The notes under the pieces were generated by a model that saw only the letters and a list, made by a program, of their open reading frames with translations, had not been told where the DNA came from and ran no database searches. Below, in pieces: positions 3,445 through 50,679 of a DNA stretch of 64,000 nt. Each line of letters opens with the position of its first letter. Positions within the stretch are counted from its first letter, which is position 1. A program made the translations under genes and the position numbers. This stretch comes from a virus (taxonomy: Duplodnaviria > Heunggongvirae > Uroviricota > Caudoviricetes), in the IMG/VR virus record IMGVR_UViG_651053023_000001, positions 1 to 64,000 of that record; one strand, given 5' to 3'.

Positions 3445-3525
3445 CTAAACGGGTGGCAGGACGTGACGGGGTTAGCAGACTGGCGTACATGAAACCAGCA
3501 GGCCGAAGCCTCCCCATCACGCCCC
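3445..3525 (-). ncRNA. c4-like antisense RNA, copy A (approximate bounds)
   Basis: Conserved leader block upstream of icd carrying a 6-nt element (ATGTAC in RNA sense) complementary to GTACAT overlapping the icd ribosome-binding site and to a second GTACAT further upstream. Confidence 0.4.
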
Positions 3526-3702
3526 ACCATAATTCGGGCGTAACGCGGTTTTACGGACATAAAAATACCGCAATATCGGAAATCTGCGGTTGTCCGCATG
3601 TACATTCAGGCTGCTAAACCCGGTCGCAGAATTTGCTACGACGTAGGAACTATAAGCCTGAACAACAGGAAGATCAATAGTCTGGCGTCCAATAGTAGTT
3701 TA

Positions 3703-3735
3703 TTTGCTCTAATAAATCAAATTTATTAGAGCAAT
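3703..3735. promoter_or_regulatory. overlapping head-to-head pair of C1 operator sites
   Basis: TTTGCTCTAATAAATCA on top strand and ATTGCTCTAATAAATTT on bottom strand, forming a palindrome. Confidence 0.65.
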
Positions 3736-3994
3736 AACAATCTAGTTGAATGTTTCCTCTCTGAGGTTGCAATGTGCACACTTAGTGCCTTATTTGTATG
3801 CACTAATAAATATATTATTTTTAACAATAAATAATTGACAACTGACAAGTGACTTCAGTCAGAATCATCACACGCCCGGTACGGATGGATCCCTTTTCAA
3901 ATATTCCATGGACGGCACAGTCTGAGTACCGGGCGCTACCTTAAGTTGTATTGCTAAGCCGCCGCTGGTGGCTTTTCTTTTTTGTAGGGGCGCT

Positions 3995-4636
3995 ATGGAT
4001 AAGAAAATATGCGTTGTTTCGATGAGCGTCGGCAAACCGGCGTCAATGACTGCTGCATGGATCAACAACGAGCTGATAATGGCTGAGCGGACCAGCTACC
4101 CTGAACGCCGCCGCGATATGGAACTCCAGCTGCTGCGCGAATTGCGAGAAAAAGAGGAAAAGGGTTTTATCGTGCTGGTGGAAGAGGAAAACAGCTTTAT
4201 TACTGGTCGAGTTGGCCAGCGTGTAAGGTTGCGCGATCCCTTCATGAACGGCAGGCCGGTACTAATTGAGGCCATGCAGATTTATAAGGAGCTGGAACGC
4301 CAGAAAGCAATCAAGTTACCGCGCAAGGAATCCGGCAAATACATCCTCCACCAAAGCATCTTCGATTCCGAACACGACAAAAAAGGCGATGAATTTTTCA
4401 ACATCAACTGGAGCGAAATAACGACAGAGCATGTTCTGACGTTACTATGTTGCTTTGCGACGGAATACAACAACGTTGCCAGCGCAGACTACATCAGGGC
4501 AATGGCTGGAGAAGTTGAGGCACGCCAGGAACCATCGTTACTAAGCCCTCTGATTAACATAATTCGCGGCACACAGAGACTTGCGGAAAAAAGCGTTCCA
4601 CACGGAATCTTAACTGGGAAGGGAAACTATTTTTAA
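3995..4636 (+). CDS. hypothetical protein (core of the inverted-repeat structure)
   Basis: ORF from ATG at 3995 (track ORF starts 3968) with AGGGG 5 nt upstream; no family recognised by eye. Confidence 0.5.
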   Translation: MDKKICVVSMSVGKPASMTAAWINNELIMAERTSYPERRRDMELQLLRELREKEEKGFIVLVEEENSFITGRVGQRVRLRDPFMNGRPVLIEAMQIYKELERQKAIKLPRKESGKYILHQSIFDSEHDKKGDEFFNINWSEITTEHVLTLLCCFATEYNNVASADYIRAMAGEVEARQEPSLLSPLINIIRGTQRLAEKSVPHGILTGKGNYF

Positions 4637-4669: not shown

Positions 4670-4987
4670 TTACAATAGCTGCCCCATACATTGTCTCCAG
4701 GCACTCCCCTCATTACCGTTATCAAGAAACGTAGAGGTTGCATAAGGAATGCCTCTGATTTGTGTTGATGTGAATGGACCATCAGACGTCGAAGTTGTGC
4801 GCAGTTTTGATGTAAACTCGTAATTTCCACTGATGCCTTTCTCTGCCAGAGCTTTTGATTTTGTGATAACTAAATCTGCACATTTCTCTGCGGCTACATA
4901 TTGCGGGTCTTTTTCAGCTTTTCCGGCACATGCAGTTATCGTTAAAACGATAGCTGCGGCTAACAAATTACCTAGTTTCATCTGCAT
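4670..4987 (-). CDS. small lipoprotein (signal peptide with lipobox LTITAC)
   Basis: 105 aa; N-terminal MQMKLGNLLAAAIVLTITAC is a typical lipoprotein signal peptide with cysteine; two further Cys in the mature part. Confidence 0.55.
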   Translation of the reverse strand: MQMKLGNLLAAAIVLTITACAGKAEKDPQYVAAEKCADLVITKSKALAEKGISGNYEFTSKLRTTSTSDGPFTSTQIRGIPYATSTFLDNGNEGSAWRQCMGQLL

Positions 4988-5086: not shown

Positions 5087-5120
5087 ATTGCTCTAATAAA
5101 TTTGATTTATTAGAGCAAAT
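5087..5120. promoter_or_regulatory. overlapping head-to-head pair of C1 operator sites
   Basis: ATTGCTCTAATAAATTT (perfect consensus) at 5087..5103 and its partner ATTTGCTCTAATAAATC on the bottom strand at 5104..5120. Confidence 0.65.
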
Positions 5121-5294
5121 ATCCTACCATTGCGCATAGCCCTATTGATCTCCTTACCGTTCAGGCTTATATTCATGCCGTCGTAGCAAATTCTGCGACC
5201 GGGTTTAGCAGCCTGAATACTTACGCGGACAACCGCAGATATCCGATATTGCGGTATTTTCATGTCCGTATAACCACGTTACGCCCGAATTATG

Positions 5295-5375
5295 GTGGGG
5301 CGTGATGGGGAGGCTTCGGCCTGCTGGTTTCGTAAGTGCCAGTCTGCTAACCCCGTCACGTCCTGCCACCTGTTT
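5295..5375 (+). ncRNA. c4-like antisense RNA, copy B (approximate bounds)
   Basis: Same conserved block as copy A but the 6-nt element is GTAAGT, complementary to ACTTAC at the icd ribosome-binding site (5404..5410) and at 5219..5225. Confidence 0.4.
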
Positions 5376-5420: not shown

Positions 5421-5642
5421 ATGGTTAATGCCAATCCTTGCGCACGCCCTGAATTTATCTGGCGCTTTTACTCCTGCCAAAAACGTCACTATCACTTCGT
5501 TATTGCACCAACAGAAGATGAGGCCCGCTCTCAGCTTCCTGACGCCCCATGTATTTTCTCTGCCCGCTTTTCTACCGATTCGCGCAATTCTCTCAGTTAC
5601 TGGTGCCTCCCTGTTAACGCTTCTGCTCAGGAGGGGCTATGA
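5421..5642 (+). CDS. Icd-like small protein, copy B
   Basis: 73 aa from ATG 5421 (track ORF 5292..5642 carries an unsupported N-terminal extension); one residue differs from copy A; overlaps the ant start. Confidence 0.7.
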   Translation: MVNANPCARPEFIWRFYSCQKRHYHFVIAPTEDEARSQLPDAPCIFSARFSTDSRNSLSYWCLPVNASAQEGL

Positions 5643-6757
5643 GAACGTCATTAGTCACCCGTGAAGAGATGATCGAGGCAATTGAACAGCACACTGCCTG
5701 TATCAGCACCAGGGATATACCAGGCGTTATTGCCAACTACTTCATGATCACCAAACAACTTTACCGGAGAAAGGACAAACACGCGGTTCACCGTATCCTG
5801 TTGTCTGATATCCGCGAATACCTGCTCGAACAGGGTCATCTGAATTACGCAACCGTCGCAGCCGAAGCACGCAAGGAGGCACACAGAATGAAAGCAACTA
5901 ACGTTAAATCAGAAAAAATTCATGCACCTTCAGTTCAGGAATCGGAGCTGGTGGTTGTTCAAAATCAGCCGGATGAAATTCCCGTTCTGGAATGGCAGGG
6001 AGTGCGTGTAGTGACAACCGAGACTCTTGCTAGAGGGTATGGGACAGAAACAATCCGTATTCGCCAAAATCATCATGAGAACAAAGTACGCTTTGTTGAA
6101 GGGAAGCACTTTTTCAAAGTTGAAGGAGAATCATTGCGCGAGTTGAAGCACAGAGTAGCTTTAAACTACTCTGTAAAAATTGCTCGCAATGTTCGCTCAC
6201 TCACCCTCTGGACAGAACGCGGCGCAGCCCGCCACGCTAAAATGCTCGAAACCGATCAGGCATGGGCATTCTTTGAAAAACTGGAAGACAGCTACTTCCG
6301 GCAAAAAGAACAGCAACCGGTTGCAATCCCCCAGACGCTTCCAGAAGCTCTGCGCCTGGCTGCCGAACTGGCTGAACAAAAGCAGCTTCTGGAACAGAAA
6401 GCCCACCAGCTAAATCAGCAGCTGGTGGCCGCCTCTCCTAAAGTCGATTTTGCCGACCGGGTATCAGTAGCTAAAGGGATCCTGATTGGGAATTTTGCAA
6501 AGGTTGTTGGTCTTAAGCAAAACGCGCTGTTTGCCTGGTTACGGGAGAACGGCATCCTGATAGCGTCCGGTGGACGTAAAAATGTGCCGTTCCAGCAGTA
6601 CATCAATGCGGGATATTTCACGGTGAAAGAAGTGGTGCTGGATGATGAAGATGGCTACCAGATACGGTTGACGCCTCAATTAACGGGTAAAGGCCAGCAG
6701 TGGTTGACGCGTAAACTGCTCGATGCTGGCTTGTTAAAACCGGTGGCGGCTGAATAA
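5639..6757 (+). CDS. antirepressor-like protein, copy B
   Basis: 372 aa; identical to copy A over the first ~131 aa and the C-terminal ANT/KilA-C domain, with a divergent patch between. Confidence 0.8.
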   Translation: MRTSLVTREEMIEAIEQHTACISTRDIPGVIANYFMITKQLYRRKDKHAVHRILLSDIREYLLEQGHLNYATVAAEARKEAHRMKATNVKSEKIHAPSVQESELVVVQNQPDEIPVLEWQGVRVVTTETLARGYGTETIRIRQNHHENKVRFVEGKHFFKVEGESLRELKHRVALNYSVKIARNVRSLTLWTERGAARHAKMLETDQAWAFFEKLEDSYFRQKEQQPVAIPQTLPEALRLAAELAEQKQLLEQKAHQLNQQLVAASPKVDFADRVSVAKGILIGNFAKVVGLKQNALFAWLRENGILIASGGRKNVPFQQYINAGYFTVKEVVLDDEDGYQIRLTPQLTGKGQQWLTRKLLDAGLLKPVAAE

Positions 6758-44627: not shown

Positions 44628-45218
<591 letters not shown>

Positions 45219-45274
45219 TTAACAGATTCTACGAGTTGTCATTTGTGACAGTATGCTCGCAATCGTAGTGATTA

Positions 45275-45814
45275 CTACCACCAACTGCTAGCTTTCTTCT
45301 CTCTAGCTTTTCCTTCGCTTTGCAGTAAATCTTTACTTCCTGTAGAAATATTTCTATTTGCATCAGCCTCAGACTGAATTACATCTGTCTTAGCTGCTCT
45401 CTCCTTCAACTCCTGCTCTATAAAATCGTTTTCTCGCTGGACACGAGCCGCTTTTGCTTGCAGTTCGAGTTTCATGCTTTCGAGTTGCAGCTTGCGAAGC
45501 TCATCCTCATAAGCTTGATCTCGCTTCTTGTCATTTGCTAGCTCGGCTTCTCGTTTCGCTCTACGTTCATTTTCTGCAGCAACACGCTGTTTTTCGCGTG
45601 CAGCAGCGGCAGATGCTGCTTTTTCTCTTCTAATACGTTCAGCTTGTGCTTGTTGGCGAATAAGTTCTTTTCTGGCATCCTCAGCTTGCTGCTCTTTAGC
45701 TCGCCCTTCATTTTCCGCTTGAGCAATAGCAGCAATTTGACTTTGCAACGAGTTAGCCAAGGCAGTGCCTACACTAAACGTAGAAAAGATTAGAAATAAA
45801 ATAATTTTATTCAT
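45275..45814 (-). CDS. secreted charged coiled-coil protein (TolA domain II-like Ala/Glu/Lys/Arg repeats)
   Basis: N-terminal signal peptide MNKIILFLIFSTFSVGTALA followed by ~140 aa of highly charged helical repeat; AT-rich. Confidence 0.55.
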   Translation of the reverse strand: MNKIILFLIFSTFSVGTALANSLQSQIAAIAQAENEGRAKEQQAEDARKELIRQQAQAERIRREKAASAAAAREKQRVAAENERRAKREAELANDKKRDQAYEDELRKLQLESMKLELQAKAARVQRENDFIEQELKERAAKTDVIQSEADANRNISTGSKDLLQSEGKAREKKASSWW

Positions 45815-45817
45815 AAA

Positions 45818-46339
45818 TTATTTCTTTTCTGGACAAGTAGCATTTGGCTGAATTCGAGTTTCATTATCTTTAGTTGAAATAAGCACAGCAAGCCCCGTTG
45901 TAAACTGGCATGCTTTACCAACTTGAGTTGAAGTGAACACCTTAGTTCCTTCTTTATAAGTCAGTGAAACACCTTCAACAATTGTTTTATCACTAACCAA
46001 AGAACCAGCCGCTGCACCAAGAGCCGCACCACCAGTACCGCCAGCTACAGCACCCAGTGTCGATGTGCCTTTAACATTATAACCGGCAACGCCCCCAGCA
46101 ACAGCTCCCAGTACCGCACCAAATGTCTGTGCCGCTTCTTTATTAGCTTTATTATCAACTTTCACTTTAGCTGGAAGCACAGAGATAATATTGACTGTCT
46201 TTGTTTCCTGCTTCGAATTCAATTGAGCGGTATCATAAACATCGGCAGCATAATCAGCACCGCTAGATTGACACCCAGAAAGAAGAATTGCAGATACAAC
46301 AAGAGCGCATAAAGTATACTTTTTAGACATAAGAATCAT
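45818..46339 (-). CDS. glycine-zipper lipoprotein (SlyB/Pcp-like)
   Basis: Lipobox ILLSGC; glycine-zipper GAVLGAVAGGVAGYNV...GAVAGGTGGAALGAAAGSL; AT-rich. Confidence 0.55.
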   Translation of the reverse strand: MILMSKKYTLCALVVSAILLSGCQSSGADYAADVYDTAQLNSKQETKTVNIISVLPAKVKVDNKANKEAAQTFGAVLGAVAGGVAGYNVKGTSTLGAVAGGTGGAALGAAAGSLVSDKTIVEGVSLTYKEGTKVFTSTQVGKACQFTTGLAVLISTKDNETRIQPNATCPEKK

Positions 46340-46620
46340 CCCAGAAAAACAAAAACCGGCGAGAAGTTACCACGAGAACGGAAAGTAAACAAGAATACTC
46401 CCATTGACTTATATCAATTAATCAACTTTTTATAAGCTATCCCTAACTTATTGTGTATAGCTGAAAAGTCAGAGACAAGTTCACCATCTGCATTATTTCT
46501 TAAGTTAATAGTTTATTGCTAACTTAATTTATGCATCGACTATTGATATCCATCTTAAAGTTACAATATCCCTCTGCATTATTTTTCATCACAAATAATA
46601 TATCTATTGCACGACACTAA

Positions 46621-46637
46621 CCTGCTCTAATAAATTT
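46621..46637 (+). promoter_or_regulatory. C1 operator-like site upstream of the canonical immI module
   Basis: CCTGCTCTAATAAATTT, 2 mismatches to consensus. Confidence 0.5.
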
Positions 46638-46824
46638 GTATTTTTAAGTCGCGAATGCTATCTTTTCGCATCATATTGACCTTTTAATCGTTCAGGCTTA
46701 TAGTTTCGCCGTCGTAGCAAATTCTGCGACCGGGTTTAGCAGCCTGAATGATTGTGCGGACAGCCGCAGATATCCGATATTGCGGTATTTTTGTGTCCGT
46801 AAAACCGCGTTACGCCCAAATTAT

Positions 46825-46905
46825 GGTGGGGCGTGATGGGGAGGCTTCGGCCTGCTGGTTTCACAATCGCCAGTCTGCTAACCCCGTCACGTCCTGCCAC
46901 CTGTT
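46825..46905 (+). ncRNA. c4: c4 antisense RNA of the canonical immI region (approximate bounds)
   Basis: Conserved leader block with element ACAATC complementary to GATTGT at the icd ribosome-binding site (46933..46939) and at 46750..46756. Confidence 0.45.
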
Positions 46906-46951
46906 TAGCAGCGGGTAGCAGGTTGTTAAACCTGATTGTGAGGCCGTAACT

Positions 46952-47173
46952 ATGGTTAATGCCAATCCTTGCGCACGCCAAGAATTCATCTGGCGTTTCT
47001 ATTCCTGCAAAAAACACCACTATCACTTCGTCATCGCAGCAACAGAAGACGAAGCACGCTCTCAATTGCCTGATGGCCCCTGCATTTTTACTGCCCGTTT
47101 TTCAACTAACTCGCGCAATTCACTTAGTTACTGGAACCTCCCCTTCTCTGCCGACGTTCAGGGGGGTTTATGA
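46952..47173 (+). CDS. icd: Icd (interference with cell division) small protein
   Basis: 73-aa ORF MVNANPCARQEFIWRFYSC... overlapping the ant start, downstream of the c4 leader. Confidence 0.75.
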   Translation: MVNANPCARQEFIWRFYSCKKHHYHFVIAATEDEARSQLPDGPCIFTARFSTNSRNSLSYWNLPFSADVQGGL

Positions 47174-48213
47174 AAAAACCTCTCGTCACCCGTAATGAAA
47201 TAGCCGAAGCGATCGCCCTGCATACAACCTGTATGCCGACACGGGAGATCCCCGGCGCAATTGCCAACTATTTCATGATAACCAGGCGTTTTTATACCCG
47301 AACAGATAAGGCTGTGATCAACAAGCTACTGATAGCCGAGATCAGGGATTATTTGATTGAACAAGGACGTCTACGTTACGCAACAGTGGCAGCAGAAATA
47401 AGAAAGGAGGCACATAGAATGACCGGTAATAATTTGAATGTTGAAAAAACAGCACCTGTTACGTCAGCTACGCCAGCACCAGCCGTGAATATCATCCCCA
47501 ACACCGGAGACACAATCGACAGCCAAACATTGTTGAAGATGGTCAATGAGGCACGCAAGTTATGTGGAGAACCAGAGGTTAGAAACAATAAATTCATCGA
47601 AAAAATACTCGATGAACTTGAAGGTGAATTTTACACAAAAAGTGCAAAATCCCATGGCACAAGGGCTGGGCGCTCTTTTGAGGTCATCACCATGACCTAC
47701 AAACAAGCCCTGCGAGTTGCCGCGCGCGAGTCAAAAGCGGTCCGCCGTTCGCTGATCGACAAACTGGAAGAATTACAGCAGGCAAACTCCCCTACCCCAT
47801 CGATCCCCCAGACATTACCAGAAGCCCTACGCCTGGCTGCCGAGTTAGCAGAACAGAAAATGCAGTTGGAACAACAGCTGGTGGCCGCAGCCCCTAAAGT
47901 CGATTTTGCCGACCGGGTATCAGTGGCCAATGGAATCCTGATCGGGAACTTTGCAAAGGTCGTTGGACTTAAGCAAAACGCCCTTTTCTCATGGTTGCGC
48001 CAGAATGGCATTCTCATGGCTTTTGGAGCGCGCAAAAACGTACCGCGCCAACAGTACATCAACGCCGGGTATTTCACGGTGAAAGAAGTGGTGCTGGATG
48101 ATGAAAATGGCTACCAGATACGGCTGACGCCCCAATTAACGGGTAAAGGCCAGCAGTGGTTAACTCGCAAGCTACTTGATGCTGGTTTGTTAAAACCAGT
48201 AGCAATAGGTTAA
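47170..48213 (+). CDS. ant: Ant antirepressor (canonical immI copy)
   Basis: 347 aa with KilA-C/ANT C-terminal domain; followed by kilA-repL as in P1. Confidence 0.85.
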   Translation: MKKPLVTRNEIAEAIALHTTCMPTREIPGAIANYFMITRRFYTRTDKAVINKLLIAEIRDYLIEQGRLRYATVAAEIRKEAHRMTGNNLNVEKTAPVTSATPAPAVNIIPNTGDTIDSQTLLKMVNEARKLCGEPEVRNNKFIEKILDELEGEFYTKSAKSHGTRAGRSFEVITMTYKQALRVAARESKAVRRSLIDKLEELQQANSPTPSIPQTLPEALRLAAELAEQKMQLEQQLVAAAPKVDFADRVSVANGILIGNFAKVVGLKQNALFSWLRQNGILMAFGARKNVPRQQYINAGYFTVKEVVLDDENGYQIRLTPQLTGKGQQWLTRKLLDAGLLKPVAIG

Positions 48214-50349: not shown

Positions 50350-50429
50350 TACAATCGTTGCGGGTGCTTGAGGCTATCAGCTTCAGGCATTACCCGAAAA
50401 GCAGATAGAAGAAAGCCCCAGATAACATT

Positions 50430-50500
50430 ACGCGTCCTGCAAGACGCTTAACATTAATCTGAGGCAATATCTATGCTTAGCATACGTAGATTAGCCTCTT
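50430..50500 (-). ncRNA. putative Sok-like antisense RNA (position inferred)
   Basis: Inferred only from hok/mok architecture, where the antitoxin RNA is antisense to the mok start region; not delimited from sequence. Confidence 0.25.
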
Positions 50501-50679
50501 ACCGACCAAAAGGTCAAGGAGTAGCAGGCTATGAAGCAGCAAAAAGCGATGTTAATCGCTCTGATCGTCATCTGTTTAACCGTCATTGTGACGGCACTGG
50601 TAACGAGGAAAGACCTCTGCGAGGTACGAATCCGAACCGCCCAGACGGAGGTCACTGTCTTCACAGCCTACGAATCTGA
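50473..50679 (+). CDS. mok: Mok-like overlapping reading frame
   Basis: 68-aa ORF overlapping nearly all of hok in another frame, as in hok/sok loci. Confidence 0.5.
   Translation: MLSIRRLASYRPKGQGVAGYEAAKSDVNRSDRHLFNRHCDGTGNEERPLRGTNPNRPDGGHCLHSLRI

Follow-up and report, generated by a model that had tools for sequence, protein, structure and literature searches.

A P1-like phage-plasmid carries, in place of the sim genes of phage P1, a two-gene cassette that encodes relatives of the Escherichia coli envelope proteins YfgH and YfgI. The element was studied in a 64,000-nucleotide stretch of DNA, positions 1 to 64,000 of IMG/VR record IMGVR_UViG_651053023_000001 (Caudoviricetes), referred to below as the window. 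The cassette occupies 45247..46622 (1376 bp, delimited by blastn and alignments) and is of the type found in phage P7. The best explanation, put forward as modestly probable, is that the pair is an accessory ("moron") operon acting as a YfgH/YfgI-like envelope-remodelling module of lysogenic conversion. Both genes are already annotated in P7, as upf50.5 and upf50.0, and belong to known families. Since they are already annotated and their function is so far a prediction, the finding is a reasonable experimental lead and not a discovery. Three results are new here: the exact boundaries of the cassette, which fall at two regulatory elements; the presence of exported proteins in every cassette examined from this slot; and a mobile clade of yfgHI pairs under purifying selection.

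A first-pass annotation of the window had placed two minus-strand genes in AT-rich DNA, roughly where P1 carries its superinfection-exclusion genes. Both open reading frames (ORFs) are real, at 45818..46339(-) and 45275..45814(-). They are separated by a gap of 3 nt, with the lipoprotein gene upstream. The G+C content of the cassette is 40.5%, against 47-48% in the flanks. The position proved to be not merely approximate but exactly the P1 sim slot. P1 homology ends at 45246, just beyond the -22 box of the late promoter LPsit, and restarts at 46623, within the C1 operator Oc4; the P1 equivalent of this interval is simC-simB-simA, 1.5 kb in the same slot and orientation. The pair is thus an exact cassette replacement of sim. 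In blastn comparisons with P1, 673R5 and Ro157c2YLVW, homology ends at 45246-45251 and restarts at 46602-46623. At the left junction, LPsit (-10 and -22 box, 45226..45245, minus strand, transferred from the P7/P1 annotation) drives the tail operon pmgC-tub-pmgB-sit according to the same annotation, and conservation with P1 extends to 45246. At the right junction, Oc4 (CCTGCTCTAATAAATTT, 46621..46637, plus strand) has two mismatches to the operator consensus and corresponds to Op(c4) of P7; the breakpoint falls after its first two bases, which belong to the cassette. A pattern search for C1 operators returned nine operator-like sites in the window, where 0.23 would be expected by chance. The phage slot between LPsit and Oc4 is an exchangeable accessory slot. 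The cassette region is 99.2% identical to positions 49432-50982 of P7 (AF503408) and 99.3-99.9% identical to SJ46, RCS47, JL22, phi456 and others, at the same LPsit-Op(c4) position. Elsewhere the phage-plasmid of the window differs from P7, with flanks about 97% identical and additional immI-like modules.

The 173-residue product of 45818..46339(-) is identical to P7 Upf50.5 (100%) and shares 67% identity over 171 residues with YfgH of E. coli K-12 (E-value 6e-73). Its lipobox, LSGC, ends in Cys23 and is followed by Gln at +2, so that no inner-membrane retention residue is present at this position; for this product, too, a signal peptide is annotated in P7. Residues 71-116 consist of 59% Gly/Ala/Ser and contain 18 small-xxx-small motifs. 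A family profile built from 37 homologues matches SlyB (PDB 7OJF/7OJG) over its full length (E-value 2.8e-9; positions 9-162 against 6-153 of 7OJF), and the match spans the lipobox, the N-terminal strand, the glycine-zipper hairpin and the C-terminal beta region. Because this match runs from end to end, the first-pass description of a SlyB-like glycine-zipper lipoprotein is correct. The secondary structure predicted by AlphaFold2, with helices at 64-88 and 94-113, follows the SlyB order of strand, helical hairpin and strands. The alignment of the 37 homologues contains 34 invariant columns, including the lipobox Cys, Cys144 and Cys169, and all of them are kept in the phage copy; the family varies in the signal peptide and in the loop that connects the two helices of the zipper. 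With the single sequence, the Pfam family Rick_17kDa_Anti scores 18.2 bits, below its cut-off of 24.2, and this domain is recorded in many of the homologues. SlyB is a stress-induced lipoprotein that forms rings around nanodomains of lipid and outer-membrane proteins. The phage lipoprotein is a distant relative of SlyB, which lacks a DUF5384 partner, and the YfgH family has an additional conserved pair of C-terminal cysteines. On sequence grounds, the product is a SlyB/YfgH-family glycine-zipper lipoprotein, with predicted localisation in the outer membrane and predicted ring formation.

The gene at 45275..45814(-) encodes a 179-residue secreted protein that is identical to P7 Upf50.0 (100%) and 47% identical to K-12 YfgI. 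It was assigned to Pfam family DUF5384 (PF17358) with 147.8 bits against a cut-off of 25 (E-value 3e-43, profile positions 4-145 of 145). Its hydrophobic N-terminus ends in ALA|NS and is annotated as a signal peptide in the P7 record; together with the lipobox of its neighbour, this agrees with the earlier prediction that both proteins are exported. The mature product contains 41% Asp/Glu/Lys/Arg and 65% Ala/Gln/Glu/Lys/Arg. AlphaFold2 models the protein as a single continuous helix over residues 3-178, with a predicted local distance difference test score (pLDDT) of 89, and the mature 159 residues would measure about 24 nm. For a model that is one single helix, fold searching is uninformative. 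In the DUF5384 family, the C-terminal residues (about 85) are conserved and have an aromatic end, and the N-terminal half is variable, rich in alanine and in charged residues.

The first-pass annotation had described this protein as a charged coiled coil resembling TolA domain II. The long charged helix is borne out by composition and by the AlphaFold2 model. The coiled coil is not, as the hydrophobicity of heptad positions a and d does not exceed the level of shuffled sequence outside the region around residues 91-132. Pairs of opposite charge at i/i+4 are enriched in the N-terminal half (10 against 5.4 ± 1.9), as in single alpha-helix domains. A Pfam scan returned DUF5384 alone and no TolA family, and a profile search of the PDB found no relative. 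With neither a PDB relative nor a general coiled-coil register, the likeness to TolA domain II is an analogy of composition and shape. Only the long charged helix is shared, and the phage protein begins with a cleavable-type signal and not with an anchor.

In the P7 record, the pair is entered as one lipoprotein of the outer membrane and one membrane protein, and similarity to proteins of E. coli K-12 is noted; the latter are YfgH and YfgI. Other records carry different labels. The YfgH-like lipoprotein is called a "DNA methyltransferase" in RefSeq and in phrog_1277, a label carried by P7 NC_050152, SJ46 NC_031129, RCS47 NC_042128 and TL-2011b NC_019445, and phi456 (OR339795) labels the pair "minor tail protein" and "tail tip protein". 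No profile search backs any of these names. More is known of the chromosomal relatives. Deletion of YfgH leads to sensitivity to sodium dodecyl sulfate/ethylenediaminetetraacetic acid, higher permeability and fewer outer-membrane proteins under stress, and overexpression of YfgH compensates when outer-membrane biogenesis genes are depleted; the same work (preprint 10.64898/2025.12.22.696046), in which yfgI goes unmentioned, predicts SlyB-like rings for YfgH. Mutants of yfgI are reportedly sensitive to DNA damage (PMC11619404). Salmonella Typhi possesses an accessory yfgHI-like operon, srgIL, which is induced 14-fold by SdiA with N-acyl homoserine lactone (AHL), whereas Typhimurium has no srgIL orthologue and yfgHI of E. 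coli is not regulated by SdiA (PMC11619404).

The chromosomal yfgI-yfgH locus, next to guaA, was found in 5419 of 5426 complete E. coli genomes, at about 69% DNA identity to the phage pair. Gene order and tight spacing are the same in both, and the invariant residues of the family are kept in the phage copy. The two differ in the signal peptides, the zipper loop, the N-terminal half of the YfgI-like protein and G+C content (42-44% against 47-49%). Further mobile relatives are known. One pair lies at the end of a P2-like prophage, beside tail-fibre genes and by yecD-aspS (68% identity); others, at 78-92% identity, occur in genomic islands that carry transposases, AlpA or integrase. Another (44% and 63% identity) is located on a Salmonella contig of about 102 kb that also has phage-type genes and a Rep3 replicon. 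This last element is called phage-like solely from PHROG matches of the neighbouring genes. It also encodes exonuclease VIII-like and endolysin-like products, its yfgHI-like pair has a G+C content of 54-59%, and a megablast search against the phage collection gave no close match.

The two genes are adjacent in every context examined, namely the chromosome, the P7-type cassette, the P2-like prophage end, the Rep3 element and the islands. Neighbour-joining trees of the two proteins, computed without bootstrap support, are congruent. In these trees, the P7-type, island and P2-like-prophage alleles form one mobile clade, apart from chromosomal YfgH and YfgI of E. coli. The G+C content of the genes in this clade is 40-44%, against 47-49% for the K-12 genes. 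Between mobile-clade alleles, the ratio of nonsynonymous to synonymous substitution rates (dN/dS) is 0.06-0.13 for both genes, which are thus under strong purifying selection. TL-2011b and about 60 IMG/VR "phage" copies (47% identity) were discounted, as they represent chromosomal yfgHI at the edge of a prophage call by guaA. Calls of the guaA-adjacent, TL-2011b-like prophage regularly extend into chromosomal yfgI-yfgH-yfgG-pdeF, and for this reason chromosomal yfgHI looks viral in phage collections.

The sim region is one of eight variable regions in P1-like phage-plasmids (PMC9603915), and the sim genes are non-essential for P1 growth (PMC10695390). In Ro157c2YLVW the slot holds two unrelated proteins, and in 673R5 it holds sim-like genes. 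A signal peptide starts every translated product of the alternative cassettes: SimA, SimB, SimC and the two Ro157c2YLVW proteins. Like the present pair, the P1 sim genes are transcribed away from immI, and they differ from it in gene number. The P1-like plasmids of PLSDB, about 506 with pmgC as the marker, were surveyed for the slot. The present cassette was found in 167 of them (about a third), always with at least 99% identity, and the full P1-type sim cassette in 137. The present cassette is common in plasmids of gut and livestock isolates. As a side observation, a comparison of P1 simA with the Ro157c2YLVW gene in the same slot showed that residues 10-45 of SimA (52 residues) match the first 36 residues of a 215-residue signal-peptide protein with one substitution; P1 simA therefore seems to be a remnant of an older cassette gene.

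The leader and presumed promoter region of the two-gene operon (46340..46622, minus strand) is 283 bp long and has a G+C content of 32%. The DNA match to chromosomal yfgHI stops inside the lipoprotein gene, and the phage leader is unrelated to the chromosomal one. A comparison with the leaders of K-12 yfgH and of other alleles found a single common 10-mer, TTTACTTTCC (about -57 and -63), no more than chance would give in AT-rich DNA. The phage leader contains a weak sigma-70-like match (-35 at 46606-46601, -10 at 46583-46578; 9 of 12 positions). It also contains a direct repeat, AAATAATGCAGAkGG on the coding strand, at 46570-46586 and 46484-46500, 86 bp apart; one copy overlaps the weak -10 match, and the repeat may be a duplicated promoter or regulator site.

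The proposed envelope-remodelling module is founded on the homology, the export signals, the linkage of the two genes and the purifying selection described above, from which a localisation, an oligomeric state, an interaction and a timing of expression can be proposed. Both products would be exported by Sec. The lipoprotein would be lipidated at Cys23 and, with Gln and no Asp retention signal at +2, sorted by Lol to the outer membrane. There its glycine-zipper helical hairpin would insert and oligomerise into SlyB-type rings. Rings of this type, solved for SlyB and proposed for YfgH, corral lipids together with outer-membrane proteins. The YfgI-like partner would be set free in the periplasm, where it would form a charged helical rod about 24 nm long, and its conserved C-terminal residues (about 85) would probably dock on the lipoprotein or on the membrane. 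Expression in the lysogen, presumably from the AT-rich leader of the cassette itself, would add a second, diverged outer-membrane-stabilising module. The predicted result is altered envelope robustness and surface organisation, that is, lysogenic conversion, and incoming phages, if affected at all, would be affected through the same envelope activity.

Several observations weigh against this explanation. The AlphaFold2 monomer of the lipoprotein is of low confidence (pLDDT 54), so it is from homology that ring formation is predicted. A scan of the cassette for promoters and terminators gave no more sites than shuffled sequence, and a cassette promoter is consequently not established. To our knowledge, YfgI has no known role even in E. 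coli. We also know of no obvious benefit of a second yfgHI copy to a host that already has one, which favours a diverged, phage-specific use. A literature search for upf50 and DUF5384 returned nothing relevant and no experiment on the phage copies. Finally, the sole characterised occupant of the slot, Sim, has an exclusion function.

This last point leads to the strongest alternative, which can be held tentatively as a possibility: the cassette would be a functional analogue of Sim, the phage copy having been selected for superinfection exclusion or receptor shielding. Rings in the outer membrane and a rod of periplasmic length would then block adsorption or DNA transit of P1-type or other phages. 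The first-pass annotation had proposed such an exclusion or anti-phage role, and as a hypothesis it is plausible, fair and testable, drawn as it is from the position of the pair and its recurrence as temperate-phage cargo. The cassette lies in exactly the slot of sim, whose product causes superinfection exclusion (Kliem & Dreiseikelmann 1989, as cited in PMC8546580), all alternative slot cassettes seen encode signal-peptide proteins, and the place of the sister pair, beside the tail-fibre genes of the P2-like prophage, is typical of exclusion morons. The phage copies have moreover diverged from the host copies (67% and 47% identity). The positional argument is circumstantial, however, and the suggested comparison with the P1 Sim proteins, run as BLASTP against SimC as the one Sim protein compared, showed no detectable similarity, only short spurious segments (E-values 5.0 and 0.044). 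The PHROG families of the pair also differ from those of P1 Sim. No defence family of PADLOC-DB v2 matched either protein at E-values up to 0.1, an NCBIfam search of the pair gave no meaningful match, and PHROG matches to Cor and Rz are marginal and confined to the N-terminal 45-67 residues including the signal peptide (for Rz-like, E-value 0.038, residues 10-67 only). The nearest relatives are core host envelope genes and not known exclusion proteins. No phage-resistance phenotype of yfgH or yfgI was found in the literature; Dub-seq and receptor-screen papers name yfgH only incidentally, the receptor screen listing it as a membrane protein gene. The pair has no homology to P1 structural or lysis proteins, and the exclusion idea therefore survives that comparison.

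A parallel for exclusion is offered by TraT, known from the F plasmid, a ring-forming outer-membrane lipoprotein of chromosomal origin that has a helical barrel as its anchor and that plasmids co-opted for surface exclusion (PMC11733297). Like the phage lipoprotein, TraT has a Gly/Ala-rich helical hairpin; it forms a decameric ring (PMC11733297). Similarity between the two is weak and limited to the hairpin: residues 74-148 of the lipoprotein align by hhalign with TraT 119-211 (85% probability, E-value 5.9e-6, 73 columns), and the Pfam family TraT (PF05818) scores 23.1 bits, below its cut-off of 31. The PDB profile search with the lipoprotein family did not return TraT. With 243 residues, TraT is 70 residues longer than the phage lipoprotein, in which the extracellular ring domain of TraT is absent. 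A more specific form of the exclusion idea, which must be regarded as rather doubtful, is that co-option has turned the mobile yfgH-yfgI clade of P7-type elements, P2-like prophage and islands into an envelope gate encoded by the phage. SlyB-type rings and a rod of about 24 nm, possibly spanning the periplasm, would shield receptors or block DNA transit, and the gate would replace Sim functionally, in parallel to the co-option of chromosomal TraT by plasmids. If true, it would provide the first function for YfgI and DUF5384.

It is unlikely that the pair is instead a virulence or host-interaction moron that confers resistance to serum and complement, bile or antimicrobial peptides in the manner of TraT, Bor or Iss, and that may be switched on by host signals such as SdiA and AHL. 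The 14-fold induction of srgIL by SdiA with AHL in S. Typhi (PMC11619404), the complement resistance given by TraT, to which the hairpin is weakly similar (PMC11733297), and the frequency of the cassette in plasmids from gut and livestock isolates all point in this direction. E. coli yfgHI, by contrast, is not regulated by SdiA (PMC11619404), and no SdiA box or other regulator site was identified in the leader. In addition, this view overlaps heavily with the envelope-remodelling module, as the biochemical activity is the same.

The two remaining explanations are largely excluded. That the pair is passenger DNA, not selected for any function in the phage, is very improbable: the slot can be replaced completely and P1 can do without sim (PMC9603915, PMC10695390), but both ORFs are intact and at least 99% identical in 167 plasmids, dN/dS between mobile alleles is 0.06-0.13, and several kinds of mobile element carry the pair independently. 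Hardly credible at all is a lysis or late function, as a spanin-like couple or a factor for the adjacent tail operon, for in spite of a superficial likeness in architecture to Rz1/Rz, the location directly upstream of the late tail operon in the same orientation and the tail-protein names in phi456, the pair lies upstream of LPsit and not behind it, is missing in P1 and in many other P1-like phages whose tail genes are identical, has orthologues that are core chromosomal genes outside any prophage, places its lipoprotein gene first (the reverse of the Rz-Rz1 order), encodes there a 150-residue glycine-zipper protein and beside it a helical protein with a cleavable signal peptide and no membrane anchor, is no lysis cassette, and owes its phi456 and RefSeq labels to no supporting profile search.

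The significance of the cassette lies in its frequency. In E. coli and Salmonella, resistance genes are commonly carried by P1-like phage-plasmids, about a third of which hold, in the sim slot, a diverged second copy of a host outer-membrane-stabilising operon. If this copy alters envelope robustness or phage susceptibility, it would constitute a widespread lysogenic-conversion trait and offer a convenient genetic handle on the poorly understood YfgH and the wholly uncharacterised YfgI.

The left junction shows a further feature. RNA that reads through from the cassette into pmgC can form a hairpin at 45195-45241 (minus strand; -24.3 kcal/mol, z -4.9), the 3' arm of which holds the pmgC Shine-Dalgarno sequence GAGG and which is kept in P1. 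RNA begun at LPsit (about 45219) lacks the 5' arm and is open (-3.2 kcal/mol). The hairpin could shield the late tail operon from upstream transcription.

On the other side, the cassette is divergent from the canonical immI (c4-icd-ant) module at 46698..48213 (plus strand; Rfam, ORFs and P7 annotation), as the first-pass annotation had recognised. All parts were found, namely the operator, the c4-a1b1 targets (46698-46750), C4 RNA (46819-46904), icd (46952..47173) and ant (47170..48213), all on the plus strand. Rfam families RF03163 and RF01695 score above their gathering thresholds, and Ant matches phrog_63 (1e-102). Also as noted earlier, an exported-protein gene divergent from an immI-like promoter recurs at 4670..4987 (minus strand), where a second small lipoprotein of 105 residues is encoded (lipobox ITAC, Cys20). 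It belongs to phrog_16031, is unrelated to the 173-residue lipoprotein and has no match in Pfam, NCBIfam or PADLOC. A second c4-icd-ant-like module lies nearby: its bivalent C1 operator (5087-5119) is about 100 bp away from the start of the gene, its C4 RNA is at 5288-5373(+), and it has an ant-like gene of its own at 5639..6757.

Altogether, three C4 RNA or immI-like modules are present in the window, with C4 RNAs at 3449-3534(-), 5288-5373(+) and 46819-46904(+). Each has c4-a1b1 targets and C1 operators, at 3703-3735, 5087-5119 and 46621-46637, respectively. Two of the modules are arranged head-to-head around the ORFs 3968..4636 (222 residues, phrog_1837) and 4670..4987. Several immI modules in one P1-like element are unusual in comparison with P1 and P7. 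Finally, a sok antisense RNA of the hok/sok toxin-antitoxin type (Rfam RF01794, 109.7 bits) is located at 50362-50536(+), just 3' of repL.

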